A stretch of 64,000 nt of DNA from Prorocentrum cordatum (Eukaryota), in assembly GCA_963575745.1 (NCBI GenBank), contig CAUYUJ010000237.1, forward strand, positions 372,001 to 436,000. Direction: 5' to 3'. Positions 16,893 through 41,960 of this stretch are shown one piece after another; the stretch's first letter is position 1, and the number at the start of each line of letters is the position of its first letter. The position numbers and the translations under genes were made by a program. Under the pieces are notes generated by a model. The model did not search any database, was not told the origin of the DNA, and worked only from the letters and a program-made list of their open reading frames with translations.

Positions 16893-18974
16893 GGTCGTGG
16901 TCGTCGTCGTATTGCTCGTCATCGTCGTCGTGCCTTTCTTCGCCACCTATATAATTGCATACGCATGCTACTTGTTTATGCCTCCGCCTCCGGCTTCCCC
17001 CTCCTTTCTTACATCCTCCTCCCCTTCCTGCTCATCATGGCCACGCCTTCCGCCCTTTTGACTTCCTTTCTCACCCTCCTTTTCCGCATGCCTCCTCTTC
17101 TCTCAACTCCGATTGCTCCACCTCAACAGCGGATGTGGATCACTGCTGGGCCAGATGATGCTACACATCCCTGATCGGGTCAACTCGCCTGGCGACTGTT
17201 TTTGGATGGGCTGGTGGGGATACGCGCAGCGAGAACAATTTTGGAGAGAGTGCATCACGGGCACAAGAGGGCCTCAAGCTGGCCGTCAAGGACCTCCGAG
17301 AGCCTAAGATGGTTTTCACAGGGCACGTGGACGGCCGAAGGTGGCTTCTTCACGTCTCCAAACGACGCCCCCAAAGACGGCAAACACGGCCCCAAGGAGC
17401 CTTATTAATCTTGTTTTCTTTATCAGCATTATCCTCACCACCGCCCACTTCACACACCCACCGCCTATCATCACCTTTCTTACTAAGCCTAACAATCAAT
17501 AATCTTCATCAAACAGCATCATCTTCCATCGTCATCATCATCATCATCATCAATCATCATCAGCTATATCATCGATCATCATTCGCAGCTGCCAGCAGCT
17601 TCAGCATCATTATCATCTCTCATAATCATCATTCCACTCAATTCTTCATCTTCATCAATTCATTCATCATCATCATCATCGTCATCATCTATCATCATCA
17701 TCATCATACGCATCTGGCTTTATAATTGTGTGGTGTGGGAACGAGGAGGAGGGACGAGGAGGAGGAGGAGGTGGAGAGGAGGAGTGGAGGGGAGGAGGAG
17801 AGAGGAGGAGGCGCAGGCGGAGGAGGACTAGGAGGAAGAGGAAGGGGAGGCGGAGGAGTCTAGGAGGAAGAGGGGGAGGGAGGACTAGGAGAACCATGGG
17901 CGTCGGGGCCAGTGAGGGAGGGAGGGAGGAGAGGGAGGGAGGGAGGGAGGATCGGAACGGAGGAGGGAGGAGGAGGAAGAGGGAGGAGGAGGAGGAGGAG
18001 GAGGAGGCGGAGGCGGAGGAGGACTAGGAGGAAGAGGAAGGGGAGGGCTAGGAGGAAGAGGAGAGAGAATTTCGAAGGATTACCCATTGGACAACCACGA
18101 CAACGCCGGGCCGATGAACCGATCAACCAATAAACCGATAAACCGAAGCATCCGATATACCGATAAACTGATAAACCGATAAACTATTTCGGATAAACCG
18201 ATAAACTGATAAACCGATAAACCGATAAACCGATAAACTGATAAACTGATAAACCGATAAACTGATAATCTGTGCTGAGATTCGGGCACGCATGCAATGA
18301 GTCGGTTTAGTGGTTGATCAGTTTATCGGCAGATCGACCGATAAACCGATATAACCATATCGGTTTATCGGTCGATCTGCCGATAAACCGATCAACCGAA
18401 ATAGTTTATCGGTTTATCGGTTTATCGGTTTATCGGTTTTATGTTCGTGTCCTGCGGCTGCAATCGATATCGGATCCAGAATGTCGGCGGATGCTTTAAG
18501 CGGGATGCGCGGTGTGGTGAAGATGTCCCGGGCGAAAGCGTTAATAATCACTTGGTCGTGGCGCGTTGGATCCCAGACTTTCCGAGGCTTGTCTCAACGA
18601 GGAAAACGGGCTCTCCTCCTCCTCCTCCTCCTCTGCGTCGTTGTCGTCGTCCTCCTCCTCCTCCGTGTCCTCCTCCACCTCCTCCTCTTTTCAGAATCAA
18701 GGGCGCGCGATTGCGGTAAGCCGCCGTGAGGCGCTCGAATTGGACGGATTGCCACGGTGAGGCAAGGATATGAGGGGGTAGCCAGGAGTCGGAAGACACC
18801 CCAGCGTCCTCATCCCATTCGTCCCCTCAATGATGCGCTGTCCCTTCTCGGGACTGGGGGGGCAAGGAACACCTTCGTAGTGGGTCTGATTTGCCGGGCC
18901 ATCGTACATTCATTTGCGTGGCAATCGAATCGGTCACCCAGGATGCCGGTTCTGTTTCCCGGACTCTTCCAAGG

Positions 18975-20260
<1,286 letters not shown>

Positions 20261-23097
20261 GGTTTCTGGCTTCGCTGCTAAAGCGGCGATGATCTGGAGC
20301 ACGCGCTTGCACTCCTGCTCCTTCTGTGGGCAGGCGTAGCGCTCTACCAACACGGCCCAACTCACGCTTGGCAAGAGTTGCTTGCGGCCGTCGTTTCGAA
20401 CCGCCACCGTGCCCCGAGGCACGATGTAGTTCTCAGTATTCAGTCCCATGAAGTCTCCATGTAGTCCTCAGCGCTCATGCTCAAGGATTCCCAAAGGGCT
20501 CGGACCCCATATCCTCGAATCTCCCAGGCGAGTCTCCGCTGCGGGTGCAACAAGGGGAAAAACGTGGGACCCGAAGTGACATTGGGAACTCTCGGCGCCA
20601 AACAGCTCCCATGAGGTTTTTTTTTTTCGTGTGGAGCCCCATCACGTCCTGAGATTGCCATAAAGGGGCTCGGGCAGCTCCAGGAGGTGCCCAGAAGCGC
20701 TCATCTGTGGCCCCAGAATGCGCCCTTGTGGATTGTGACCCAAACCCAGGCACTGCGGCGGCATGTGCCGAAGGCTGTAAATACTTGCGGATCGCGCAAC
20801 TTGAATTCTCCACGAAGAAGAACTTACCCGCCATTGCGCGTCTTGGCATTTTGAGGCGTGCTCGAATGCCTTGTGCTGTCTGGATGAGCTTATGTGATCT
20901 TCCAAGAACCCCCCCCTCTCTATCAGCGCCCCGGCGCGTGCACGGCCTCCCTTTCTCCGAGGCTCTGTCCCCATGACGCTCCGAAGATTTCAGCCATTGC
21001 AACTTATTCGGGTTTCCCGCGGCTCAATACGCGCCAAGAGGGCTCCAACATGGCACTGCGACGGCTGAACATGACAGCGAACATGCTGAACATGCAAAGA
21101 AGGCCTTGGGACAGCCCGAGTAAATCCCACCAGCTCTTTAGGGCGTGAGTGGTCTAACGAGCTCGTTCTGCTAAACCCTCTCCTTCCCCTTCGGGGAGGG
21201 GGCTCCCCCTCCCCCCACCCCCTACCCTGGACCTGGAGGGAGGGTTTCGCGAGGAATTGGAGCGCCCAAGATGGCCCAATATGGCTGCAAGAGGGCCCCC
21301 AAGAGCCCCAGATGGTCTCCAATATCTTGCAAGATAGCCCAAGATGTTCAAGATAGCTTTTCAAATGCATTCAAGAGCTCTCAAGACCGGCCCAGGACGC
21401 TCCAAGTGCTGTCGAGCCCTCCAAGGAGCCCTCAGCAAGAGGCCAAAATCTTTGAAATCACTGGTGTTTGTCCACCAGTTTTTCTGCTTCATCGCCTTTT
21501 CGTTCGTTTGGGGGATGGTCCTCAGTGCTCATGCTCAAGGATTCCCAAAGGGCTCGGACCCCATATCCTCGAATCTCCCAGGCGAGTCTCCGCTGCGGGT
21601 GCAACAAGAAAAACGTGGGACCCGAAGTGACATTGGGAACTCTCGGCGCCAAACAGCTCCCATGAGGTTTCGCGGAGCCCCCAACACGTCCCCAGAGATT
21701 GCCCAAAAGGGGCTCGGGCAGCTCCAGGAGGTGCCCCAAGAAGCGCTCAAGTGGCCCCAAGAATGCGCCCTTGTGGATTGTGACCCAAACCCAGGCACTG
21801 CGGCGGCATGTGCCGAAGGCTGTAAATACTTGCGGATCGCGCAACTTGAATTCTCCATGAAGAAGAACTTACCCGCCATTGCGCGTCTTGGCATTTTGAG
21901 GCGTGCTCGAATGCCTTGTGCTGTCTGGATGAGCTTATGTGATCTTCCAAGAACCCCCCCCTCTCTATCAGCGTCCCGGCGAGTGCACGGCCTCCCTTTC
22001 TCCGAGGCTCTGTCCCCATGACGGCCCCGGGGGCCCCCCCAGGGAACCTCAATGCCCGATCAGGAAAACAGCATGCACGCTCCGAAGATTACAGCCATTG
22101 CAACTTATTCGGGTTTCCCGCGGCTCAATACGCGCCAAGAGGGCTCCAACATGGCACTGCGACGGTTGAACATGGCAGCGAACATGCTGAACATGCAAAG
22201 AAGGCCTTGGGACAGCCCGAGTAAGTCCCACCAGCTCTTTAGGGCGTGAGTGGTCTAACGAGCTCGTTCTGCTAAACCCTCTCCTTCCCCTTCGGGGAGG
22301 GGGCTTCCCCTCCCCCTACCCCCTACCCTGGACCTGGAGGGAGGGTTTCGCGAGGAATTGGAGCGCCCAAGATGGCCCAATATGGCTGCAAGAGGGCCTC
22401 CAAGAGCCCCAGATGGTCTCAAATATCTTGCAAGATAGCCCAAGATGGTTCAAGATAGCTTCCAACATGCATCCAAGAGCTCTCGAGACCGCCCCAGGAC
22501 GGCTCCAAGTGCCTGTCGAGCCCTCCAAGGAACCCATCAAGAGGCCAAACTCTTTGAAATCCCTTGTGTTTTTTTCACAGTTTTCTGCATCATCGCCTTT
22601 TCGCGTTCGATGGGCCCCTGAGGCCTCAAGATGGCTCCATGATGGCCCAAGAGGGCCCCAAGAGGGGCCCAGGAGGGCCCCAATACCGCCCCAAGAGCGC
22701 TCAAGACCGCCCCAAGAGCGGCCCAAGAGGACCCCAAGAGGCACATTTTCGGGTCCCGACGGGGGGGGGGGTGACTTCAGGACCCCCCTCCTTATATGAT
22801 CGATTGCCCCAAGAAGGCCTTCAACGCATCAAATATGGCCTCAAGAGGGCCCCAAGAGCGCCCAAAGAGGGCCCCAAGAGAGCACCAGGAGGCCCCAGAG
22901 GCCTCCAGGATAGCCCAAAGAGGGCACCCAAGGCTTCCAAGAGGGCCCCAAGAGCGCCCCAAGAGCCCAAGAGGGACCCCAAGAGCGCATCATGAGGGCT
23001 CCAGAGGCTTGCAACATGGGCCTCAGAGTGCCCCGCGATGGCCCCAAGAGGCTTCCACTACGCGACGCTCTCAGAGCGAAGGATGTTGGTGGTTGAC

Positions 23098-24125: not shown

Positions 24126-25994
24126 CCATCCTGATTATAATCCGAGGAGGAACGAGGAGGAGGAACGAGGAGGAGGAGGAGGAGGAGGAGGAGGAGGGAG
24201 GAGGAGGAGGAGGAGGCGGAGGCGGAGGAGGACTAGGAGGAAGAGGAAGGGGAGGCGGAGGAGACTAGGAGCAAGAGGTGGACGGAGGACTAGGAGAACC
24301 ATGGGCGTCGGGGCCAGTGAGGGAGGGAGGGAGGAGAGGGAGGAGAGGGAGGGAGGGAGGATCGGAACGGAGGAGGGGGGAGGAGGAAGAGGGAGGAGGA
24401 GGAGGAGGAGGAGGAGGCGGAGGCGGAGGAGGACTAGGAGGAAGAGGAAGGGGAGGACTAGGAGGAAGAGGAGAGAGAATTTCGAAGGATTACCCATTGG
24501 ACAACCACGACAACGCCGGGCCGATAAACCGATCAACCAATAAACCGATAAACCGAAACATCCGATATACCGATAAACTGATAAACCGATAAACTATTTC
24601 GGATAAACCGATAAACTGATAAACCGATAAACCGAGTGCAGCGGCAACGGCTTCCGGAAATCCATCCGACCGATAAACCGATAAACCGATAAAAACTAAT
24701 CGGTTGAACGGTTTGCAAACCGATCAACCGAAAAACCGATATAATTTGATCGGTTTATCGGCGGATCGGTCGCTCAACCGAAAAACCGATAAACTTCGTA
24801 TGCGAACATAGAGGCGATTGCTGGCGCGCCCCCCTCTCTTCGTCGGTTTATCGGTTGATCGGTTTATCGGTTGATCGGTTTATCGGTTGATTGGCTGGTC
24901 TGAGACCGCCGGGGGGGAACCTGTGGAGGCGATCCTTGTGCCGCATATCGGTTTATCGGTTTATCGGGTTATCGGTTGGTTGTCAGTTCCCCGCCACGAC
25001 GACGACGGCGACGGCGACAGTGGCCGGACCGCCATGGGGCAGGGCACCTCCGAAGTCAGAGAGAGGCGCGAGGGCGTCTCAGGCGCAAGTGGCCTGAACA
25101 CCGCATCTCGGGGAAGATCGGGGGTCAGACTACGTGAAGGCAGGGCGCATCCCAGGTCAACGCTGCGAGTTTTTGTGTAGGCGGAACTGGCCAGGACAAT
25201 TTGGAGCAGGGAAGAATATCAGAGGTCAGCGTTGCGAGGATGTCTCAGGATGAGGATGAGGAAGGTCATGCTGATGATAATGATGGCGATGGCGGCAGCC
25301 GCGCGGGAGGCAAAATCTGGCGGGGCAAATTTCGGCGGGAAGCAAGTGCGAGGATGGCTCAGGCGATGGTGGCCAGATTACTTCAACTCAAAGAATATCG
25401 GATCCCAGAATGCTGCGGATGCTTTAAGCGGGATGCGCCGGTGTGGTGAAGATGTCCCAGGCGAAAGCGCTAATAATCACTTGTCGTGGCGCGTTGGATC
25501 CCAGACTTCCGAGGATGTCTCACGAGGAACGGGCCTCCTCCTCCTCCTCCTCCTCTGCGTCGTTGTCGTCGTCCTCCTCCTCCTCCTCCGTGTCCTCCTC
25601 CACCTCCTCCTCTTTTCAGAGTCAAGGGCGCGCGATTGCGGTAAGCCGCCGTGAGGCGCTCTAGTTGGACGGATTGCCACGGTGAGGCAAGGATATGAGG
25701 GAGTAGCCAGGAGTCGGAGGACACCCCAGCGTCCTCATCCCATTCGTCCCCTCAATGATGCGCTGTCCCTTCTCGGGACTGGGGGGGCAAGGGACACCTT
25801 CGTAGTGGGTCTGATATGCCGGGCCATCGAACATTCATTTGCGTGGCAATCGAATCGGTCACCCAGGATGCCGGTTCCCCGGACTCTTCCCAGGATCAAA
25901 ACGCACCAGCCTCTGTCGCCGCGTCCGGCCGTGGCGACGAGGGGGGCCCCGAAGGCCACAAAGCCTCGGTGCTCGAGGGGTCGGGGGGTGCACC

Positions 25995-26025
<31 letters not shown>

Positions 26026-26029
26026 CGAT

Positions 26030-26088
<59 letters not shown>

Positions 26089-26266
26089 CGGCGTCGTCGC
26101 CGTCGTCGTCGTGCGCCCACCCGACCCAGAATCCGTCCCAATCGGGCCCCAGGACTCTTCTCAAGGTCAAAAAGCACCAGCCTCTGTCACCGCGTCCGGC
26201 CGCGGCGACGAGGGGGGCCCAGGAAGGCCAGAAGCCTCGGTGCTCGAAGGGTCGGAGGTGTGTACC

Positions 26267-26367
<101 letters not shown>

Positions 26368-26579
26368 GGCGGCGGCGACGGCGGCGGCGGCGGCTGCGAC
26401 GGCGTCGTCGCCGTCGTCGTCGTCGTGCACCCCCCGACCCAAGATCCGTCCCGAACAAGGCTCCGGACCCTTCCCAGGGTCAAAAGGCACCAGTTTCTGT
26501 CGCCGCGTCCGGCCGCGGCGACGAGGGGGGCCCCCGAAGGCTACAAAGCCTCGGTGCTCGAGGGGTCGGGGGGTGCGCC

Positions 26580-26679
<100 letters not shown>

Positions 26680-27483
26680 CGGCGTCGTTGCCGTCGTCGT
26701 CGTCGTTCCCTCCCGACCCAAAAATCGCCCCAAACGGCCGTGGCCGGCTCTCCAGGGCCATGCAGCCCAAGATCTGTCACGCGGTCGGGCCCGCGGCGAC
26801 GGGGGGCCCACGAAGGCCAGATTAGCCTCGGTGGTCGAAGGTTCGGAGGGGCGCGCCACATACGACGGCGGCGAAGACGACGGACGACCGGGACACGGGG
26901 GGGGGGGGTGGGGGGGGGGGAGGGGGACGACTGCGGCGGCGGCTGGCGACGGCGTCCTCGCCTGCGTCGTCGTGCACCCCCGACCCAGAAACGTCAAAAG
27001 GGGTCCGGATTGTTCCCAGAGTCAAAAAGACTCCCGTCTCTGTTCGGCCGCGTCCTGGCCGCGGCCGACGAGGGGGGCCCCGAAGGCCAGGAAGCCTTGG
27101 TGCTCGAGGGGTCGGGGGGTGCACCACGACGACGGTGACGATGACGACGACGATGGCGATGGGGATGGTGCTGATGATGACGACTACGGTTTCTGGCTTC
27201 GCTGCTAAAGCGGCGATGATCTGGAGCACGCGCTTGCACTCCTGCTCCTTCTGTGGGCAGGCGTAGCGCTCTACCAACACGGCCCAACTCACGCTTGGCA
27301 AGAGTTGCTTGCGGCCGTCGTTTCGAACCGCCACCGTGCCCCGAGGCACGATGTAGTTCTCAGTATTCAGTCCCATGAAGTCTCCATGTAGTCCTCAGTG
27401 CTCATGCTCAAGGATTCCCAAAGGGCTCGGACCCCATATCCTCGAATCTCCCAGGCGAGTCTCCGCTGCGGGTGCAACAAGGG

Positions 27484-27649
27484 CACAAATCCTGGCGCTT
27501 GCACTCGCCTCGCACGGCCCTGGGGGGGGGGAGGAGGAAGCCTCCCCCAGGAGCGGAGGGTGCGGACCCGACCCATCTGCCCCGCAGCGCGCGGCCTCTC
27601 CGAGGCCAAGCGGGCAGACGCCGGTCGGGCCCGTGGGGGAGCACCACCC
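27484..27649 (-). repeat. Split direct repeat B2 (3' terminus)
   Basis: Matches 28046-28213 except around the G-run. Confidence 0.95.
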
Positions 27650-27681
27650 CCCCCCCACACCCCCAGGGCGGGTAGGGCGGG

Positions 27682-28045
27682 CCAACGACAGCTCGTGGTC
27701 ACTATGGACCAGAAGAGAGGGCCCCATTGGGCACGTGAACGCAGCAGGCCGCTATGGGCCGCAACGAAGCCACTATGGGCCGCAAGGACGCCACTATGGG
27801 CCGAGCGAAGCCCCCAGAGGGCGGAGGGCCGAAACCCGACACACGGCACGGTATTTATATCCCGCCCCAGTGCCAGGCGGAGGAAGCACGGCACGGCACT
27901 GCACCACACGACGCGTGCGGGAGGCGGAAGAGGGTCGACCAGCGCGCGGCCGACCAGCCGAGCGAGGGCGCCCCCGCGGCCAGCCGCGGGGTCGTTCACA
28001 GCGCGGGCGGATTTGTGCCAAGCAATAACTTCGTTATTCCGACCC
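27682..28045 (-). repeat. Split direct repeat A2 (364 bp)
   Basis: Matches 34205-34568 with 4 substitutions by eye. Contains three copies of a 21-bp subrepeat (gccactatgggccgcaa...). Confidence 0.96.
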
Positions 28046-28213
28046 CACAAATCCTGGCGCTTGCACTCGCCTCGCACGGCCCGGGGGGGGGGGGGAGGAG
28101 GAAGCCTCCCCCAGGAGCGGAGGGTGCGGACCCGACCCATCTGCCCCGCAGCGCGCGGCCTCTCCGAGGCCAAGCGGGCAGACGCCGGTCGGGCCCGTGG
28201 GGGAGCACCACCC
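28046..28213 (-). repeat. Split direct repeat B1
   Basis: Directly abuts A2, forming the B|A junction; matches B2. Confidence 0.95.
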
Positions 28214-28328
28214 ACTGCAACGGCGCTCCCGCGGGCCACGCCCGGCGCTGCCACCCACTGCCCCCGCGTGCCGGGGGTGCGCCCACGTGTGTGCCGTGCA
28301 GACGCGACCACCAGACTGCGCGGGGTGC

Positions 28329-29953
28329 TCAGCCATCGCCATCGTCGCTGGACGACTCTGCCAAATGGGCTTCCGCGACCGACTGCCGCTCGAGCCGGGA
28401 GACGTTAAGGTATTTCATCCACGCGGGCTGATGCCAGCCGCCCGCGCGAAGAAGGTCGGTGACCGGTCCGCCCCTGGCAGCGATGTCCTGCGCGTGCCCG
28501 CGCCTGAACGCGTGAGTGCCGAATGATTCCGCGTCGTGGCGCCCCATTTCGCCCAGCGCGCGGCGCAGCCGAGCACGTGCCGCGCCTGGGGACCACGCAG
28601 CCCAGATGGGCTGATGAGCTGGCTCGCCAACTAGCCAGGCCCCAAGAACGTGTACGGGTCAGGTGACCGCGCACTCGTCGCACCAGCACTGCCGTGCCAT
28701 CACCGAGCGGCTCTCGCGGTTCTTTCTCCTGGAGAGGTGCAGCTCGATCTTCTGATCGCCGACGACGAACGCGGAGGCCACGCAAGCTGCGGCCGCGCCA
28801 TCTTCAACCCGCACCGCGGGCAGGGCCTCCGAGGGTAGCCGAAGGAGGAATGCGTAGGCCGCCAGGCACAACATGGCGAAACGGCGACCCTCGTCACTGA
28901 CGCGCAGGTGCGACACCAGACGGGCGACGTCGCGGCCCTGAAGGGCCATGCGCGCCTTCGCCTGCCAGCCTGAACGCTTCTCGATGGCGTTCTTAGCGGC
29001 GCGAACCGCCGGGTGCCTGAAGACTTCCACGGGCCTTGCGCGCCAACTGCCGCCGCGGGCGGACGCGCGCGTTGCCGGAAGATGAGAGGCGGGCGCGCGC
29101 CGGCAAGCCACGAGGCACGCCTTCTTCACGTAAGTCACATAATTGCTGAAGGTCCCGGCGCACCTGAAGGTCGTGGACCACAGAAGCAGCCCCTCCAGGG
29201 TGGGCGGCAGTTCCTTCCCCCGTCGCTTTAAGACGCCCCTTGCGAATGTAACCCAGCACTCGAAACCGCTGCTGAGCGCGGGCAATGAGCGCGGGCATGC
29301 GCCCAGGAGAGCGCTCACCCGGGCCCTGCGCGCCCACGCTTTACCGGCCGCCGAGGAGGTGATGAGGGCTCTGGCCCGAGCAGCTTCGGCCCGCGGCCCG
29401 CGCATGTCACGCCGACCCTCGCGCCCAGCGACTGAGAGCGCCCACCGGACCGCGGACACGGGGTCCTCCGGGGGAGCTGCATGCGCCCTGCCGCTGTCCT
29501 GGCGCCCGCGTTTAGCGCTGCGAGCGACAAGCCGCATTTCGCGCGCGCACCGTGGAGGATGACGAGACGGATTCGCTCGAGGGCGACCGCGTCGCGATGT
29601 CGGTCCTGCGACGGCCGACAAGGGGGGGGCCCGCGACGAACGCGGAACGCGCAAGCAGACCTGGGGGCAATCCCGGGCGACGGGGCGGGCGCAGGAGACG
29701 CGCCCGCGCTGCCCCTGCCCAGCGCGGCTGGCGCGCCGCCGCGCTGGGCTGCCGCGATAGCCGCGCGGACCACCTCGCGGGCGTCGCAAGATAATGCCGC
29801 GGCGCCCCTGAAGTCTGCCAGGGTGACGCCAACCAAATCGCTCACGGCGTCGGCGCCGGTATCGGCAAGCAGCTCGGCAGCGGCGAACACAGGAAGAGGG
29901 CGTGCCTCAGGGCAAACCGCGCGAAGCTGAGCGAGCAATCCAGCCAGCGCCAT
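28329..29953 (-). CDS. Tyrosine recombinase, 4 predicted exons (29953-29661, 29605-29551, 29498-29101, 29034-28329), one internal TGA at 28659-28661
   Basis: Catalytic motifs LLRLPSE (R), RRKN (K), THAFRRG (HxxR), GGW and KYL (Y), plus CWCDECAVT*PVH. The spliced length of 1452 nt is a multiple of 3. Start codon and introns are predictions. Confidence 0.9.
29035..29100 (-). other. Predicted intron (66 nt, GC-AG) in YR
   Basis: CG|gcgcgc...gcaag|G. In-frame; removal gives KKACLVACRPVEVFRHP. Weaker support because no frame change is needed. Confidence 0.6.
29499..29550 (-). other. Predicted intron (52 nt, GT-AG) in YR
   Basis: ACG|gtgcgc...ctaaac...gccag|GAC. Removes an in-frame TAA and switches into the recombinase frame. 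Confidence 0.8.
29606..29660 (-). other. Predicted intron (55 nt, GT-AG) in YR
   Basis: AG|gtctgc...tcgcag|G. Together with the next intron it links the MALAGLL frame to the catalytic frame. Confidence 0.75.
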
Positions 29954-30204
29954 CGCGCGAACACCGATGACATTCTCCAGGTGCGCCGACAAACCAGAGA
30001 AGCCCTCGCGCGCCCACAGGCGAAGCGCGACCGCGACGTGCGCGAGGGAGGACGCCAACCCCTGCCCGACCTGGCGGGCGCACCCTGACCGATGAGTGAA
30101 GGCCAGCTCCATTGCACGCACGCCCAGCGCCCGAGCCGGTCATGGCCGGCGATGAGGAAGCCACGCGCTCGGATCGAACCAGGCATCGTCCAGCACCGGA
30201 GGAA

Positions 30205-32727
30205 TCACTCCGCCCCCAAGCGATACAGCAGGGAATATGACTCGCGCGACGGCAGGTCGGCGATGTTGTCCACCGACGCCACACGCTGAACGTGCAGATT
30301 GCAATTCGCATCCAGCGCCATGCGCCAGATTGAGTGGACCAGGCAATTGTGGTCAAACTGCTTCGCCGCACCGGACCGGACGGCCACTCGCTGCCTGAAT
30401 TATCCGAAAAGATGTTCACGCATCGGCCCGACAGGAGCGGCTCAAAGGTGGCCAGGCCCAGCGCGATGCTGAGCACCTCCAGACCGCCGATTTGATTGTC
30501 GCGCCTTTCCCTGAAGAGCCGAAGCAGAGGCACAGGCGGGGCGACATCGGTGAAGACAATGCGCCCGTCAATGAAAGGAACCGCGGCCACTCTAGCTGGA
30601 TTCCCCCGCGCGTCGGAGAGCAATTGGACAGACCTGGTGTCTGGCGCCTGCCACTCCCGCGTCGTGGTGAAATTTCTGGCGAGCGCTTCGTGCCACCATT
30701 GCAGGCAGACTCGCAGGTGCGCCGGGATACTAGGATGGCGCGCCCTTGCGTGCTCAATCAACGGCGGGAGCAGCGCGCGCCCGAACCGCCCGAAGGTGTG
30801 GGAGGCAGCCCAACAGAAGCGGCCTGCCAACTTGGACGCGCGCCCGCGCTCGAGCGCGCCCTCTTGAAGAGCAGCAGCGATCTCGGCGCGCCACCGGGCG
30901 CGCTTTTCCGGCAGCGGCCAGCACACGAGGCCACGCTCGTCAATCGCCACAGACAAGCCCAGGACCCCGAGCGGATTGCCGAACAGCAGCTTACCGTCGG
31001 CCACAGCGCTCGGGCCCAGAATGATTCTTACCAGTTCGGCGAACTGTCGCATTGCGTCGCGCAGCCCTTTCTTACGTTCGTCGCAGAAGAAGTCGTCCAC
31101 ATATCTGAGGACGGGGACGAAAATGAGCCTGCGGCCCAGCGCTGACAGCATCGCGCCGATGCGCTCCCAGCTGTGAACGGAGGAAGTCGCTCCGAATGGG
31201 GCGGCGAAGTGCTGAGCCACGTAGACGCATGTGCCCACGAGGACGCGACCCATGCGAGGGCGCGATGTTCCGGCAACAGCGGCACGCGCCGGAACGCGGC
31301 GTCTATGTCCGCCTTCCAGAGCCCGGGCGCTTCGCCCACGCGCGTCACAAATGCCTTGCAAGTGCCAAACAGAGCGTCGATGTCTTCATGGCCGAGACGC
31401 TCCGTCGGCTGCGACGCCGCGTTGATACGAGAGCGCGACATATCATCTACGAGCCGCAGCTTCTCGGACCCGTCCTCTCTCGACTGCCGGACGCCGACCC
31501 GCGGCGACAAAACCGCACCGTCGAGCTCGACCGCGCTGAGCGGCGCGGGATGGCTCATTCGGCCGAGCTCCGCTTCGGCGATAGTTTTGGTGAGAATCAC
31601 GGCGGAGTCGCTAGACTCCTTGAGCGTGCCGATCAGCGCGGCGTTGCCTCGCTCCGCGCCCGCGGCCAAGTCCGGCAGGCTGAGCGGTACAGGGAAAGAT
31701 TCCGGACGCCCGTTCCCCGTGCACGGGAGAGGGCCCACGAGAGGCGCGCCGCGCCGAAAGACTTCCACGCAGGCCGCGTCCTCGTAACCGATTTCGTCGA
31801 GCAGTTCGACGTGAAGAGGGCCGTTGATCGACCCTGCGATTGTGCGCACATGGGCATCGCAGCCCGCGAACCAGGCCGCCGTCGCTCCAGAGGCGCGTAG
31901 CTCGGCGTCCCTGGCCCGAATTCGCTCGAGAGTCGCTCGCCGCTCACGGCACACCTGCCGCTCCGAGCGCGCAGCAATCCAATCGATCGCCGCCAAAACA
32001 TCGCCGGGCACCACCACGGCCTTTTCAATGGCCTCTTTGTCCTCGAAGGAGTGAGAACGGGAGAGGACCTCTTCAAGAAAGGCGAGCTTAGGCGCTTCCT
32101 CAGCAGACGCAGGCGACGGCAGGTGACAGCAGCCGGCAGTGGCCAGCGCGCAACCGCGTGCATTGCAACTCGAGGCAGCATTCTGCCGGGCGCGCGAGCC
32201 CGCGAGCGTCGCGCACCACATCGCGCAGGCGCCTGATATAGTCCCATGTGGCAGCGTATTACTGGGACCCCATCGCTCCTTTTGGCGCTTTGCTGTGCGC
32301 GACGAGGAATCGCCTGCGGGGGAGTTCGACGAGCCTCCTGGCCCACAGACGGGTGGGCTGGCCCTCGCCGCGTCGCGCGTCCGAACGGACGCCGAGTAGG
32401 TTGATGTCACCAAGGCCCTGGACGCGCGGGCCAACAACGCGGCGCCCGTCTATTATTTTTTTTTTTTTTTTTTTTATTTTTTTAGTTTACGTTTTTTTTG
32501 TTTTTTATTTTTATATTTTTTTTTTTCTTTTTTTTTTATTTTTAAGTTTGTTATTTGTTTTTTTATTTTTTTTTCTGTATTTATATTTTTTCTTTTCCTG
32601 CCCAGGCCGCGGCCGCGCGCGCCTGCGGGTCCCACGGGACGGTGGCTGAGGTTGGCGCCCATGCGTTGTTATTCAAATGCCAACGTGGCGCGCGATGCAC
32701 GTCCTCATCGGCGCGCGTCCCGCACAT
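30205..32727 (-). CDS. pol (reverse transcriptase + RNase H) of element 2, with single-base frameshifts near 31242 and 30384; N-terminal structure unresolved
   Basis: KLRLVDDMSRS, LWKADIDAAFRRVP, APFGATSSVHSW and LRYVDDFF (31092-31103). RNase H motifs LLSDARG, NQIGGLE, IFSDN and RVASVDNIADLPSR. The segment 32727-32110 has a TAA at 32259-32261 and an unexplained frame change. Confidence 0.92.
32418..32622 (-). other. Predicted intron (205 nt, GC-AG) containing a 146-nt A-rich tract (32451-32596)
   Basis: CAG|gcgcgc...gtccag|GGC joins WDPQ to GLGDINLLGVR. Without the tract it is 59 nt, like the other introns. Confidence 0.65.
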
Positions 32728-32765
32728 CGCCGCGCGCCGCGGGCTGCGCGTGCCTCCGGCGGGCG

Positions 32766-34123
32766 TCAGGCGCGCGGCTTCTTCTGAGGAGAATACACCT
32801 TTCGCGAATCCCAGGAGCGCTTGTTGTAATCCCCGCGATAGGATCGGGACTGCCACCCGTCGGCTCTGGAATCGCGGTCGTTCTTCCAGGAAGTGACGGC
32901 GGCGCCCCCCGCGGCTCCCACGGCGCCCGCGGCGCTCGCGGCGCTCGCACTCTGCCCGCGCGCTGCCGCGGCGCTTTTCACTGCACCCTTGCCGGCCGGC
33001 GCGGCAACCTGCGCGACAGCGGTGGCGCAACGCGAACAAGGGATTCGGCGACGCGGCCTTAAGAGCCCGATCATATTCCGCTTCCGCCGCGCGGAGCAGC
33101 CCGACGTCAAGCGACAGCGCCGCAACGTTCACCTGCGCGCCGACGCGCGCCCGAGAATAACGCGCCGAAGCATGGTGCGGAGCTGCGGCCTGGAAGCCTG
33201 CCGCGCCGGCGGCGGCACGCTCGGCCCACGTCCTCCGCACAAGGCGGTCGTAGACCAAGGCAACCTGGGCCTTCCGTCCCTGCAGGGGGGCATCCAGTGC
33301 AACCTGGGCAAGCGCGCCCACTTCGGCGACCAGCGGACGGGCGCAAATGTCGACTCGCCTGGAGAACAACGTGTTTGTGAGCCATGGCGCTCGTGTACGA
33401 AATCTGATCAGTGACCGCGGCCGCCACGCTCCACGCGTCGTAAGCTTGGTGCCATGGCGTCCACGCCAGAAGCGGCTGGCTCTACGCCGCGGTTCCCCGT
33501 CCGAACGCTCTGGCCAACGCGGCCGCCTCTTTCGACTCGGGCTCGTCATCGTCGGGAGAGCCACCCGCGCCGCGCGCGCAAAGCGGCTGGAACTTCGCGA
33601 GCTCAGTATAAATGAACGGGCGCGCGATTCCCCTGGATTTCGCGCGCTGCACCTCGGTGGCCAGCGCATCGGTCTTCGCTGACCTGAGCGAACGATGGAA
33701 ACGCGCCAGCGCGCCGGGGCGAAGCCGCGCGGCCGCCTCGGCCACAGGGACTCCGGAAGGTCCCTCAAGCAGATCTGGGCCAGGCCAGCGCCGATGTCGA
33801 CATGCTCTCCCTTCGGCGGGAGCCCAGGATTCTGCAGCAACCGAACCGAAACGACCCGCCGAAGCCGGCGCGGGCCCCGCGGCACCCGGCGAACTCGCCT
33901 TGGCTGCCGCCACCGTCGCGCGATCCAGAGCGCGCCGCAGGACGCCCTTCGTCAGCGCCGTCGCGCCATCGGCATCCTTCAAATCGCCGAATTGAAGATT
34001 GGCCAATTCTTCTGGCATCGTCAGCCCAGTGGCTGCCAGGCAATCAATGGCGCCCTTGAACTGGATATCAGTCCACTTCGCGCCCACAACAGGGTCAGAC
34101 TGCAAGAAGGCAAGCATCGCCAT
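32766..34123 (-). CDS. gag-like ORF of element 2, 6 predicted exons (34123-33899, 33831-33737, 33683-33359, 33303-33190, 33132-33058, 33008-32766), one internal TAG at 33482-33484
   Basis: The spliced length of 1077 nt (359 codons) gives ...LPESLWPRSAKTDALATEVQRAKSRGIARPFIYTELAKFQP...AHKHVVLQVALDAPLQGRKAQVALVYDRLVRRTWAER... with a basic C-terminus. The gag label is positional. Confidence 0.82.
33009..33057 (-). other. Predicted intron (49 nt, GC-AG) in gag
   Basis: AAG|gccgcg...cgcgcag|GTT; frame-changing. Confidence 0.78.
33133..33189 (-). other. Predicted intron (57 nt, GC-AG) in gag
   Basis: CAG|gccgca...cgcgcag|GTG; in-frame. Confidence 0.65.
33304..33358 (-). other. Predicted intron (55 nt, GC-AG) in gag
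   Basis: CAG|gcgagt...gcccag|GTT; frame-changing, joins HVVLQ to VALDAP. Confidence 0.85.
33684..33736 (-). other. Predicted intron (53 nt, GC-AG) in gag
   Basis: AG|gcggcc...gctcag|G; frame-changing. Confidence 0.82.
33832..33898 (-). other. Predicted intron (67 nt, GC-AG) in gag
   Basis: AAG|gcgagt...ctgcag|AAT; frame-changing. Confidence 0.78.
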
Positions 34124-34204
34124 CGCAATCACAGCGCCACGGGGCACGAGCGAGAACCACGCCAGCTGAAGCCCGCTCGCTTGCATGCCAGCGCGCCATA
34201 GTGA

Positions 34205-34568
34205 CCAACGACAGCTCGTGGTCACTATGGACCAGAAGAGAGGGCCCCATTGGGCACGTGAACGCAGCAGGCCGCTATGGGCCGCAACGAAGCCACTATG
34301 GGCCGCAAGGAAGCCACTATGGGCCGAGCGAAGCCCCCAGAGGGCGGAGGGCCGAAACCCGACACACGGCTCGGTATTTATATCCCGCCCCAGTGCCAGG
34401 CGGAGGAAGCACGGCACGGCACTGCACCACACGACGCGAGCGGGAGGCGGAAGAGGGTCGACCAGCGCGCGGCCGACCAGCCGTGCGAGGGCGCCCCCGC
34501 GGCCAGCCGCGGGGTCGTTCACAGCGCGGGCGGATTTGTGCCAAGCAATAACTTCGTTATTCCGACCC
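34205..34568 (-). repeat. Split direct repeat A1 (5' terminus, 364 bp)
   Basis: Matches A2. Confidence 0.96.
34375..34382 (-). promoter_or_regulatory. TATA-like box (TATAAATA) in repeat A1
   Basis: AT-rich island in a GC-rich repeat, in sense orientation, ~250 nt upstream of the gag ATG. Function is inferred. Confidence 0.4.
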
Positions 34569-35479
34569 TAATAAAATGAAAAGAAAAAAAAATTTGTCTT
34601 TCTTGTTCAAATGTAATCAAATTTCAAGAATCCCTTGCAAAAAATTAGGTAAAGTGGACATTCGCGCGCGCAAGACGAAATCCTTCCAAAAGCTTAGTGT
34701 TCGGAGCGATTTTAACATAAAAACATCAAAAAACCAATGGTTTTTCAACAAAATAATGTCAAAATCTCATCCCGCGCGCTCTTGCGGATTCGTAGGAAAC
34801 CCAACTCTTTTTCAACATTTCTGTCAAACGGGCTTTTGCGAGCAACTTTTTCGAACTTCTGCGACAACGGTTGCGCACCTGCCAGGGCCATCATCCCTGT
34901 CAAATAATACATGCGGGACAGATTCGTTTTTTCTTCGCGCGCGCACGCCGAAATCTCCAAAAACCATTGGGTTCTTAAGAATTTTACCACCGCGCATCAT
35001 AAAATCACACGAATGCACCGTAGGTATGAATGCTGGAGCCACGCACGTGATACCAGTCAAAATAAGGGTCTTGGCTTGTGTGGTACAGAAACGTTAAAAC
35101 GTCGGAAAACGGTACACGTGCCCATTGTTGGAACAGGGGTATAAGTCGTATACGAAGCTAGTTTCCACAAGATGTTACCACAAGAAGTCATTGTAACCAT
35201 GCGCCAGTGTAGTAGCCAAGGTCGTCCGCAGGCCACGAAGTGAAGTGTCCGAACGTCATGGGGCGGGAAGCTGGGTGTGGGTGGTGGCGAAGAGTCGTTT
35301 GGAAATTTGGTAGAGCTTGAACCGGCCACCCCACAAAGTGGGGGTATTGCCCGCCTCCTATGAAAACCCTTTTTACTAATTTCTATTGCTTTTTGTTTTT
35401 ATTTTTGTTTTGCTGCTTGTTGTCTCTGTTTTTTCTTTGGCACTGGTGAGACCGGCGTGTCCCCTGTCTTAGAAATGAT

Positions 35480-37889: not shown

Positions 37890-39623
37890 GAACTCTCATT
37901 CTTGAAGAATAATTATTGTTGATCCCCCCCCACCGGTGCACACTGCTTTGTTTCGATTGAAGTGCCACCCCCGGGGCTCGCACCTTGTTTTTCTCAAGGA
38001 AAGTCTTCCTGCTCAAATTGTGCCCCTGCCCCCCGGGCTACAACAACAACGGCTCCCGCCTGAGATTTCTTCGATTTTTACTCAGGACCCCCGCTCCCGC
38101 CTGAGACTTCCGCGCAATTTACTCAGGAAAGGCGCTCCCGTCGGAGACTTCCTCGCAATGTAATCAAGACCCCCGCTCCCGCCTGAGACTTCCGTGCAAT
38201 TTACGTGGGAACGGCGCTCCCGCTTGAGACTTCTTTTAATTTTATTCAGGACCCCCGCTCCTGCATGACATTTGCGCGCAATTGACTCAGGAACGGCGCT
38301 CCCGCCTGAGAGTTCTTCGCAATTTAGTGAGGACCCCCGCTGCCGCCTGAGACTTCCGTGCAATTTGCTCAGGAACGGCGCTCCCGCTTGAGACCTCCTC
38401 GCAACTTAGTCAGGGCCCCCGCTCCCGCCTGAGATTTCCTCACAATGTACTCAGGATTGCGCTCTCGCGTGCGACGTCCTCGCAAATTATTATGGAATTG
38501 CGTTTCGGCGCTCAGGAACCACGCGCGCGCCAAGGACGCCTTCACAACGTGGTATCTTCCCTCTTCCTTCGTCCTTCCCCCTCCCCTTCCTCCAACTCTC
38601 CCTCGTTCTTCCCCTCCTCCTCTTGCAGGGCCCGCGCCAATTCCAATGGCGGGCAGAGAGATGTACGCCCCCGAAGGATTGTCCGCCCGTTCCGGCTTGC
38701 CCGTACGTCTAAGCCCGCCGGCCCCAGCAAAGAGAAAGAATCCCCACGAAAGGGGTGTGATCGAAGACGAAGAGGGCGGGTATCGAGGGTGTAGGGTATA
38801 CGTGTTGAATGACTCGCGGGCCAGTAAAAGCGTACAGCCTTAAAATGGTTGTTGTTGTTGAACAGTATTACTTCTAAAGAATAATTATTGTTGGGACCCC
38901 TGGTGCACGACCCCCCCGCCGCGCCTAGGCCGCAGCCACGTTTTTATCATTTTCGTGAGGAAGCCTCAGGCAAAACGATGTGGTCCAGATCCGGTTGTTT
39001 TGTTGTCCCCCGTTTTCCCTTGCAACAAACACTATAAAATGACATTTCTTGTTCTAACATAACCAAACTTCAGGAATCCATTGCAAAAAATGACACAACG
39101 TGCACATTCGCGCGCGCAAGACGAAATCTTTCCAAAACCTTAGTTTTCGTAGCGATTTTAACATAAAAACATCAAAAACCAAATGTTTTTTCCAAAAAAA
39201 AAAATGTGAAAGTTCTATCCCGCGCGCTCTTGCGGATTCGTAGGAAACCCAACACTTTTTTAACATTTCTGTCAAAAGGGCTTTTGCGAGCAACTTTGTC
39301 GAACTTCTGCAACAACGGTTGCGCACCTGCCAGGGCCATCATCCCTGTCAAATACTACCATGCGGGACACATTTGTTTTTTCTTCGCGCGCGCACGCCGT
39401 CGTCGTCGGCCGCGGGGCCCTGAATAGTAGCCACGGTCGTCCGCGTGCCACGAAGTGAAGTGTCCGAACGTCATAGAGCGGGAAGCTGGGTGTGGGTGGT
39501 GGCGAAGAGTCGTTTTGAAATTTGGTAGAGCTTGAACCGGCCCCCCCACAAAGGGGGGGTATTGCCCGCCTCCTATGAAAACCCTAGCACTGGTGAGAAC
39601 GGAGTGTCCCCACGTGCTAGTAC

Positions 39624-39661
<38 letters not shown>

Positions 39662-41960
39662 GCTGTTGTTGTTGTTGTTGAAGATTATTACTTCTAAAGA
39701 ATAATTATTGTGGGGGCCCCTGGTGCATGGCCCCCCCGCCGCGCCTAGGCCGCAGCCACGTTTTCATCATTTTCGTGAGGAAGTCTCAGGTAAAACGATG
39801 TGTACCAGATCCGGTTGTGTTGTTACGATCGGTTTTCCCTTGCAAAAAATAAGCTAAAGTGGACATTTCTTGTTCTAACATAACCAAACTTCAAGAATCC
39901 CTTGCAAAAAATAAGGTAAAGTGGACATTCGCGCGCGCAAGACGAAATCCTTCCAAAACCTTAGTTTTCGTAGCGATTTTAACATAAAAACATCAAAAAA
40001 CCAATGGTTTTTCAAAAAAAATGTCAAAATTTCATCCCGCGCGCTCTTGCGGATTCGTAGGAAACCCAACACTTTTTAAACATTTCTGTCAAACGGGCTT
40101 TTGCGAGCAACTTTTTCGAACTTCTGCAACAACGGTTGCGCACCTGCCAGGGCCATCATCCCTGTCAAATAATACCATGCGGGACACATTCGTTTTTTCT
40201 TCGCGCGCGCACGCCGTCGTCGTCGGCCGCGGGGCCCTGAATAGTAGCCACGGTCGTCCGCATGCCACGAAGTGAAGTGTCCGAACGTCATAGGGCGGGA
40301 AGCTGGGTGTGGGTGGTGGCGAAGAGTCGTTTGGAAATTTGGTAGAGCTTGAACCGGCCCCCCCACAAAGTGGGGGCATTGCCCGCCTCCTATGAAAACC
40401 CTGGCACTGGTGAGAACGGAGTGTCCCCACGTGCTAGTAATTGTTGTTGTTGTTGTTGCTGTTGCTGTTGCTGTTGTTGTTGTTGTTGTTGTTGTTTTTG
40501 TTTTTGTTGTTGTGTTTGTTTTGTGTTTGTTTTTGTTGTTGAATTTTCATGTCTGAAGAAGTAATTGTTTAATCGCTTCGTTCATTCCTCTGGCCTTGGA
40601 GCGCTATTTGGAGCGTTTTGGGGCCGCCTTGGGGGCTTCTTGGGGGCGTCTTGGGGCTCCTTGGCGGCGTATTGGGCCCCCCTGGGGCCTCTTGGGGGGC
40701 TCTTGGGGGCCCCTTGGGGCGGGAGGGGGGGTAGTCGATTGCAGCCCCCCCCTCGGGGGCCACGATCCTCGTGAGTGGTGGCGAAAAATAGCCTCCCCCT
40801 TAGGGATCGCCCGGGACCCGGCCGGGACCCGGCCGGGGATCGGCCGAGGTATTTTTCGTCCGGGGCCCCCCAGGGGCCGCCCCGCGCGCGCGAACTAGAA
40901 ATATTGTTAAGCAGTCGCTGGGGATTTTAGCACGCCTCTGGCCCGTTGCGCAGGCGAATTGTTGATTGAATTTTCATGTATGAAGAATTCATTATTGTTG
41001 ATCCCCTCTCACCGGTGCAAATTGTTTTTTCTCAGTCAAAGTATGCCCCTCGACGCTCGCACCCTGTTTCGCTGTCTCGTGTCAGGGAAAGTCTTTCTGG
41101 TCAAACTATGCCGTTGGCCCCCCAGACTACAGCAACAACGGTTCCCGCTTGAAACTTCCTCCAAATTTTCTCTGGACCCCCCCTCCCGTTTTTGAGATTT
41201 CTTTCCAATTTAAGCAGGAACGGCGCTCCCGGTTGAGACTTCCTCAGAATTTAGTCTGGGTCAAGCTGCGTTGTTGCCCCCCCCCCGGATTACAACATTC
41301 CTCTTAGGTTTTCCTCCAACTTTACTCAGGACCCCCGCTCCCGCCTGAGACTTCCTCGCAATATACTCAGGATCGGCGCGCCCGCTTGTGACTTCCTCGC
41401 AATTTAGTGAGGGCCCCCCCTCCCGTTTCTGGGGCTTCCTTACAATTCACTCAAGAACGGCGCTCCCGCTTAAGATTTCTTTGCGCTTTAGTCTAGACCC
41501 CCGCTCCCGCCAGACATCCCCTTTTCAGGAATTGCGCTTTCGCTTGCGATTTTGTTCGCAGCCGAGGCCCCGCATTCGCTTCCAACGTGTCGCCGAGCAG
41601 CACCAGAGGTGTTACATGGCGCTGATTATGGCGCGACCCATGGCGAAACCTTTGTTAACCTGTATTGGAATGGCTGGCGTAAGCCATGGCGCAAGGTGAA
41701 TCGCAACTCGCGGCACAATTCATCGTCGTCCCTCCTTCTTGCCCCTGTAATCATTATTTTCCTCCGATCCCTTCGTCATCTCTTTTGTCTTTTCCCTTTT
41801 CGTTTCCCTGTTTAGAGGCTTCTCCAATTACACGTAGCCAGGAAGGAATATAACCCCCAAGAGGGGGCACGATTGAAGACGAAGAAGGCGGGTATCCAGG
41901 GTTTGGGATATGCATAGTGCATGACACGGGGGCCGGTAGGAATTATTGTTCTTGCTGTTG
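34569..41960 (+). repeat. Array of two module types (P ~730 bp; Q ~0.9-1.3 kb with a 41-bp subrepeat) separated by (TTG)n
   Basis: P: 34600-35470 (5'-truncated), 38890-39620, 39712-40438. Q: 35540-36440, 36465-37740, 37920-38845, 41000-41940. The 41-bp unit ctcccgcctgagacttcctcgcaatttactcaggacccccg is clear at 38053-38450. Confidence 0.88.

Follow-up and report, generated by a model that had tools for sequence, protein, structure and literature searches.

Retroelements are held to be free of introns because they copy mature RNA, with Penelope-like elements as the odd exception. Retroviruses and some long terminal repeat retrotransposons use unspliced RNA as the template and spliced subgenomic RNA as the messenger; their unspliced RNA encodes Gag, whereas in the element described here a correct Gag would require splicing. 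This element lies on the minus strand of a 64,000-nt window of Prorocentrum cordatum DNA (the whole stretch that was analysed, to which all coordinates refer). We consider it probably a dead or error-laden copy of a multi-copy, Ngaro-type tyrosine-recombinase (YR) retrotransposon, whose master sequence carries true spliceosomal introns and is propagated from unspliced RNA. The element and its genes are as follows (pol encodes the predicted reverse transcriptase and RNase H, RT/RH; ORF, open reading frame):

27484–34568, minus strand: whole element, a split-direct-repeat YR retrotransposon, decayed copy (delimited by direct repeats found with BLAST of the region against the window)
32766–34186, minus strand: gag gene, predicted six exons (34186–33899, 33831–33737, 33683–33359, 33303–33190, 33132–33058 and 33008–32766)
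30140–32662, minus strand: pol (RT/RH), one exon in the family consensus, broken here by 1-nt deletions at 31242, 30383 and 30205
28329–30112, minus strand: YR gene, comprising an N-terminal domain, a linker and the recombinase core; interrupted by the loss of 1 nt at 29535 and by a stop at 28659–28661

Split direct repeats in the arrangement A1-[ORFs]-B1A2B2 define the Ngaro-like elements of the DIRS order, which contain gag, RT/RH and YR in this order and no methyltransferase, as described in passages of PMC13465315 and PMC8547959. The window element has the same repeats and the same order of genes, and is an element of the DIRS order with Ngaro-type layout (split direct repeats, RT/RH, YR and no methyltransferase). 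It differs in having predicted spliceosomal introns in gag and YR (and in relatives also in pol), an RT too divergent for the Pfam cut-off, a long N-terminal domain on the YR ORF, and a Gag without a zinc knuckle. SymbioDIRS of Symbiodinium are alike in their dinoflagellate host, their A-coding-B-A-B repeats, a separate YR ORF and an RT poorly recognized by Pfam, the last point having been remarked for dinoflagellate DIRS elements by de Mendoza et al. 2018; they differ in possessing a Dnmt3 domain and intronless gene models (sections of PMC5890265), whereas no DNMT was seen here and introns are present. For kangaroo-1 of Volvox, a PAT-like YR retrotransposon, introns have been reported in transcripts, according to a statement in PMC1636488, which makes it similar to the window element. 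Retention of introns through retrotransposition has been called "highly unusual among retroelements" for Penelope-like elements by Craig et al. 2021 (a passage of PMC8557442). Those elements differ in their unrelated RT clade, GIY-YIG endonuclease and target-primed copying, and mostly have one conserved intron, compared with five to ten or more per element here. The word "intron" was absent, in a term search of the text available, from two overviews of DIRS and Ngaro elements (PMC3266345 and PMC3783388). A full-text literature search, with most subscription journals outside its reach, found no description of intron-rich YR retroelements, in agreement with a remark in an earlier note on this DNA that the phenomenon may be undescribed.

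The predicted introns of gag were evaluated by scoring every possible excision around each junction, with any ends, against the uninterrupted gag genes of two relatives (L024 and L005). The five-intron model and variants of it were then scored against 24 uninterrupted gag homologues. A codon model was trained on the secure coding parts of the element and found the correct frame in 77 of 93 held-out 54-nt windows. In addition, a splice-site matrix was built from the introns of relatives and applied to the 1648 loose GY..AG pairs of 45–70 nt in the element. The predicted introns are:

33832–33898, minus strand: gag intron 1, probable, acceptor possibly at 33811 instead; the reading frame must switch from 0 to 1 here, and the ends are not fixed by homology
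33684–33736, minus strand: gag intron 2, 53 nt, GC-AG; 1 of 1755 excisions scores better
33304–33358, minus strand: gag intron 3, 55 nt, GC-AG; none of 1796 excisions scores higher, and no other with the same score has GY..AG ends
33133–33189, minus strand: gag intron 4, 57 nt, in frame, GC-AG; shares the highest score of 1858 excisions, but with no other GY..AG solution
33009–33057, minus strand: gag intron 5, probable, 49 nt, GC-AG; 291 of 1701 excisions score better
29035–29100, minus strand: YR intron, 66 nt, in frame, GC-AG; 3 of 2470 excisions score better, and it is the only GY..AG near the top

Spliced as the earlier note had proposed, gag scores 414 against the gag of L024, compared with 189 for the unspliced frame, and the alignment is gapless over junctions 2, 3 and 4. 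The five-intron model attains a summed score of 7173 over the 24 homologues. Reading frame 0 through introns 1–2, continuing frame 0 beyond intron 3, or keeping intron 4 each lowers the score in 24/24 homologues; with intron 5 kept, the score drops in 15 and rises in 5. The frame proposed for every gag exon is supported by the codon model; frame 1 of exon 2 shows homology to the gag of L024 and has a codon score of 7.3, compared with −9.1 in frame 0. The ends of introns 1 and 5 are not fixed because both lie in poorly conserved stretches. Intron 1 ranks 3 of 1648 with the splice matrix and 1218 of 1981 excisions score better, and the alternative acceptor at 33811, found in P. cordatum gene models, lowers the score in 11 and raises it in 6 of the 24 homologues. 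The intron-5 junction is also used by the P. cordatum model P0031, and the frame-2 tail past it resembles the W/S/Y/K/R-rich tails of knuckle-less homologues. The intron-2 junction recurs in models P0023 and P0031, and P. cordatum protein records on several contigs require the same junctions. P0031 retains intron 4, the retained segment being a gap against both L024 and L005. Of note, within the set of P0023, P0024, P0029 and P0031, one model retains intron 4 and two use different sites for intron 3.

Contigs of four public runs (X1, X2, X6 and X8; two metagenomes and two coded organisms, all presumed to derive from DNA) were compared with positions 27284–34768. They are colinear with the window through gag, X1 record 3 spanning 32631–34213 with zero gaps, and the introns are retained in this family consensus. 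The frame breaks of gag are therefore not private to the window copy. None of the contigs of the four runs has a joint at a predicted intron.

For YR, an alignment of 12 homologues revealed 22 extra residues past the conserved KKAC..VA motif, which are present only in the family of the window (a gap in 11/11 others), and the 66-nt excision lifts the summed local score from 614 to 789–806. In a subfamily that is 83% identical (P0016, 24 cluster members), the gene-finder ORF begins upstream in a different frame and runs into the exon via this segment, whose length there is not a multiple of three and with which the upstream exon is out of frame. The position of this intron is within 2 nt of one common to four other families. 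Taken together, the homologue alignments strongly support gag introns 2, 3 and 4 and the YR intron as predicted, and make gag introns 1 (33832–33898) and 5 (33009–33057) probable.

The same habit was found in related families. Metagenome contigs were scanned with the pol alignment, which yielded 79 related loci of 29–47% identity; introns were located by chaining uninterrupted proteins on these loci with tblastn, followed by optimization and removal of duplicates, and families were defined as clusters at 88% nucleotide identity. At many places the protein alignment is continuous while 45–70 nt of DNA intervene with a change of frame. At least 124 non-redundant short introns were obtained (median 56 nt; 119/124 of 45–70 nt), a count that is a lower bound with biased positions, since introns of 3n length are invisible to the method (0/124; tblastn absorbs them as gaps). 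Their donors are GT in 87, GC in 33 and GA in 4; G precedes the donor in 84%, C occupies acceptor position −3 in 73% and G follows the acceptor in 85%. T content is 33% in the introns and 23% in the flanking exons. GT/GC...AG ends in splice context were thus observed both in the window and among the 124 introns of relatives. When the top-scoring excisions at 186 junctions were tallied, GT..AG was the commonest pair of ends (62), with GC..AG in 23; the next commonest pairs were one- and two-base slides of the same sites, and a demand for GY..AG ends at the exact top score was too strict, as slides over the repeated AGG tie.

At least one intron was detected in 36 of 55 marine metagenome families, distributed over gag, pol and YR. 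Of the intron positions in pol, 17/48 are common to at least two families and one is common to 11, and 6/18 of those in YR are shared between families; introns at shared positions differ in sequence and length. Upon removal of the introns, the pol ORF of L032 grows from 322 to 651 aa over six junctions, L015 attains 508 aa over four junctions and has a 425-aa recombinase ORF over three, and L038 reaches 544 aa over three. Conversely, zero introns were detected in L003 and L005, none in the gag of L024 and none in the pol of the window family. A profile search over 1.84 billion representatives returned 1355 gag relatives at E-values up to 0.001, and RT/RNase H is conserved at 36–84% identity among relatives. 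The phenomenon is wider than the earlier note saw. In the master sequence of the window family, the predicted introns are of 49–67 nt with a GC (rarely GT) donor and a CAG/G acceptor, five in gag, at least one in YR and none in pol.

Several contigs of relatives (L050/L056, L070/L074, L005 and L074) are circular permutations or run pol-YR-gag-pol, and one X1 contig has a joint 34213>27677; where near-identical relatives were compared in search of separate insertions, their contigs were colinear or circularly permuted. The permuted relatives are tandem copies, circular forms, or the result of assembly cycling via the terminal repeats.

Damage private to the window copy accounts for the remaining frame breaks. 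In the contigs of 4/4 runs an extra base relative to the window is found at 31242, 30383, 30205 and 29535, and a different letter at 28659 and 33484, which abolishes the in-frame stops of YR (28659–28661, a private substitution) and gag. Two ORFs without interruption, P0001 (782 aa, 90% identical) and P0002, fall into four pieces in three frames when aligned with the window. Three further features belong here:

33482–33484, minus strand: in-frame stop of gag, private substitution (4/4 runs read C at 33484, and homologues have E there)
32445–32621, minus strand: AT-rich low-complexity insertion of ~177 nt, private, ends approximate (over 32229–32630 the contigs have 225 nt and the window 402)
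29499–29660, minus strand: upstream part of YR where the earlier note placed two introns flanking a 55-nt exon, most likely ordinary coding linker (consensus base 29535, P0037, codon model)

Three segments that the earlier note had proposed as introns were rejected. Those at 29606–29660 and 29499–29550 in YR together mimic the frame shift caused by the missing base 29535: the consensus ORF P0037 (594 aa, seen on four contigs) is continuous through 29499–29660, and the 55-nt "exon" between the two has a codon score of 8.4 in frame 0 and −0.9 in frame 1, the frame of the earlier note. This region is most likely a plain coding linker and introns there are unsupported, although the splice matrix ranks 29606–29660 first and 29499–29550 thirtieth of 1648. 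The third segment, at 32418–32622 (205 nt) in pol, overlaps the private AT-rich insertion and P0001 reads across it, with 59 additional codons in the window over the AT-rich tract. Just downstream of the insertion, the start of pol (32229–32444) found no match in the consensus contigs at 88% likeness and diverges from P0001 far more than the rest of pol, so that it is a variable or recombinant segment.

The window copy is dead or error-laden. It differs from the four-run consensus by ~49 substitutions, of which the 39 listed comprise 10 transitions and 29 transversions, and the four 1-nt deletions each adjoin the same letter. Such a transversion-heavy spectrum would be odd for natural decay; these substitutions and deletions may be assembly errors rather than mutations.

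The core of the earlier note, namely a tyrosine-recombinase retrotransposon with genes split by short GC/GT-AG introns of dinoflagellate type, is thus borne out by the comparison with homologues. All nine segments that it had listed exist at its coordinates and have GC/GT...AG ends; six are supported, four of them firmly, and the three just discussed fail as products of decay private to this copy. Likewise, excision restores frame and colinearity for four introns, loosely for two and not for three. With gag introns 2–4 and 29035–29100 cut out, the alignment to uninterrupted homologues is gapless, and P0037 and P0001 read through the three rejected segments. The suspicion that the frame changes are private indels holds for the break at 29535 but not for those of gag, which are kept in the contigs of 4/4 runs. 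After excision of all the introns of the earlier note, stops still remain at 33482–33484 in gag and 28659–28661 in YR; the note overlooked these two private stops and three private deletions in pol.

In the mechanism that we propose, the full-length transcript would remain partly unspliced and serve as the template for reverse transcription, so that new copies inherit the introns, and Gag and the recombinase would be translated from spliced forms of the same transcript. The proteins would act in trans on the unspliced RNA, because the template RNA cannot encode a correct Gag. The template might be chosen by a signal inside an intron, by slow splicing at weak GC donors, or by copying in the nucleus. 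If spliced or partly spliced RNA were copied now and then, this would account for related families without some or all introns. Translation of pol and the recombinase might involve spliced-leader trans-splicing, which is a guess; the dinoflagellate spliced-leader relic, searched for as a 21-mer, had zero matches in the window at up to three mismatches. The alternatives put forward in the earlier note, an unspliced template with a spliced messenger or movement as DNA, would both fit the intron retention in the consensus.

Several observations weigh against this interpretation. Among the runs listed as carrying the element, none is recorded as RNA; the contigs of the four runs, being presumably DNA, have no bearing on expression or splicing, and the window copy itself cannot be active. 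Gag intron 4 and the YR intron are in frame and stop-free, which makes read-through products possible, and the consensus ORF P0037 includes the 66 nt of the latter. Frame 0 has no stop in intron 1, exon 2 or intron 2 and, once the private stop is removed, extends well beyond intron 3, so that unspliced RNA could encode an aberrant Gag. The gene models of P. cordatum conflict at introns 1, 3 and 4. Moreover, the splice matrix does not separate confirmed from unconfirmed window introns: gag introns 2 and 4 and the YR intron (the ninth of the earlier note), which are confirmed by homology, rank only 113–269 of 1648. The detection bias of the tblastn chaining belongs to the same account.

We weighed four other explanations. 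It is very unlikely that all frame breaks reflect decay or assembly errors of one copy and that the "introns" are rationalizations which GC-rich DNA always permits. Such an account draws on the private 1-nt deletions at 29535, 30205, 30383 and 31242, the stops at 28659 and 33484, the two YR introns of the earlier note that only compensate one deletion, and the sheer number of loose GY..AG pairs (1648). Yet the gag frame structure is the same in the family consensus with zero gaps, exact excisions align gapless to 24/24 homologues, and relatives share the habit at common positions; a strict AG/GY..CAG/G frame-changing candidate of 45–70 nt occurred near a random point of the element in only 126 of 2000 trials. 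For gag introns 2–4 and the YR intron, one-copy decay is refuted unless the homologue alignments are wrong. A similarly low probability attaches to the segments being small insertions in non-functional elements that were multiplied by tandem or segmental duplication and never spliced. AGG is repeated at both ends as in a target duplication, the assembled contigs of several relatives are tandem or circularly permuted, and splicing is deduced from sequence; but in up to 11 families the segments share codon position and phase while being unrelated in sequence and different in length, they have GT/GC-AG ends and a T-rich interior (33% compared with 23% in exons), and the ORFs are otherwise intact over 500–650 aa, which dead elements would not keep.

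Ribosomes skipping the segments by programmed frameshifting or translational bypass instead of splicing is extremely improbable: although the segments are ~50 nt long with matching take-off and landing triplets (CAG...CAG), the in-frame ones (57 and 66 nt) are excised as exactly as those that change the frame, and the ends match the splice consensus, including GT/GC at the first two bases. We know of no translational bypass of this kind in nuclear genes. The main rival for how the element spreads accepts the introns as real and supposes movement as DNA through the recombinase, as in Cryptons, with no special handling of RNA. Some YR DNA transposons carry introns, which DNA transposons are able to tolerate according to a passage of the Glomhopper paper (PMC13465315), and all consensus contigs retain the introns. 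We rate this possibility as unlikely because RT/RNase H is conserved and intact, forming an uninterrupted 782-aa ORF in the consensus with 36–84% identity across relatives. In addition, split direct repeats are the hallmark of YR retroelements (passages of PMC13465315 and PMC8547959), and the uneven loss of introns from family to family is consistent with spliced RNA being copied now and then. Retrotransposition from an unspliced template thus remains our preferred interpretation.

The gene assignments rest largely on profiles and a structural model. Pfam searches of the raw window ORFs gave nothing useful, the sole match being Phage_integrase over the last 109 aa (E 0.017), and the nearest named proteins were "unnamed protein product, partial [Prorocentrum cordatum]". 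RVT_1 matched pol below the cut-off (E 0.009 and 8e-4) and the pol sequence profile had zero matches in the PDB. When P0001, an intact homologue of pol, was modelled with AlphaFold (pLDDT 71) and compared by Foldseek, the best match was the RT of CaMV (3.7e-10), followed by those of MoMLV, Ty3, HERV-K and HIV-1, and pol is predicted on this basis to be a reverse transcriptase with RNase H. Pfam detected no methyltransferase domain after RNase H, a negative that is weak for so divergent a family; P0001 ends ~20 residues beyond the RNase H fold. A profile of 12 recombinase homologues (A2) matches Cre over the catalytic C-terminus (E 4e-4), and the columns of R, K, HxxR, W and Y are invariant in 12/12 sequences. 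At the family level the protein thus has the sequence hallmarks of a tyrosine recombinase with catalytic R, K, HxxR, H/W and Y, and the window's own copy bears a private stop. No zinc knuckle was found in the Gag of the window family; in those of L024 and L005 two CCHC knuckle motifs each were recognized by eye, and Pfam zf-CCHC reaches its cut-off in L024 (E 1.3e-5, two stretches) and misses it in L005 (E 0.006, one stretch). A viral contig collection gave 107 pattern matches and zero relatives of the element. The host is a Prorocentrum-like dinoflagellate.

The minus-strand order of the element is A1, the internal part with gag, RT/RH and YR, B1, A2 and B2. The repeats are:

34205–34568, minus strand: repeat A1, 5' end of the element; matches 27682–28045 with 98.9% identity over 364 nt
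28046–28213, minus strand: repeat B1, 98.2% identical over 168 nt to 27484–27649
27682–28045, minus strand: repeat A2, paired with A1 (BLAST)
27484–27649, minus strand: repeat B2, 3' end of the element, paired with B1

The left end is exact, as three flank paralogues within the window continue with other sequence after the base matching 27483, and the right end was placed where the A repeat stops. In the target-site-duplication test, the left junction was exact against the three paralogues and the right flank was a different repeat. The consensus contigs have 14 additional nt at 34204. Pol starts ~100 nt past the gag stop and the recombinase ORF 28 nt past the pol stop, giving three separate ORFs in a region of 64–70% G+C. 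A 13-nt palindrome, ATAAC TTC GTTAT, is found at 34549–34561 and 28026–28038, ~8 nt from the end of repeat A; it immediately precedes the A2/B1 junction and may be the core site at which the recombinase acts.

Both flanks are repetitive. The right flank is an AT-rich repeat (34599–34950) that recurs at 39045–39399, 39866–40216 and 46801–47162; summed over the four runs, its contig depth amounts to 10^4 to 10^5, hundreds-fold above the element, and it is a very high-copy repeat or satellite. The left flank (25900–27483) is repeated at 18950–20556, with 97% identity between 26926–27483 and 20000–20556, and contains long arrays of GAC/GGC nine-base units.

On balance, we lean towards the view that the window element belongs to a marine, probably dinoflagellate, clade of YR elements whose gag, pol and YR genes have held on to spliceosomal introns at conserved positions, up to ten or more in one element, over many cycles of retrotransposition. 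Template and messenger RNAs would be strictly separated, the proteins would act in trans, and the patchwork of introns would reflect occasional copying of spliced RNA. This clade would be a second, unrelated and apparently large group besides the Penelope-like elements, with introns that are many, short and conserved in position. It poses testable questions: how unspliced RNA is picked as the template though it would be unable to encode Gag, whether the introns aid expression or escape from silencing in dinoflagellates, and at what rate introns are lost by reverse transcription. Gene calling of the intronless or prokaryotic style shreds such elements; annotation of dinoflagellate genomes probably records too few of them and takes them for host genes. 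In P. cordatum the family proteins are labelled only "unnamed protein product", and its copies are probably counted among the host genes because they are filed as ordinary proteins.

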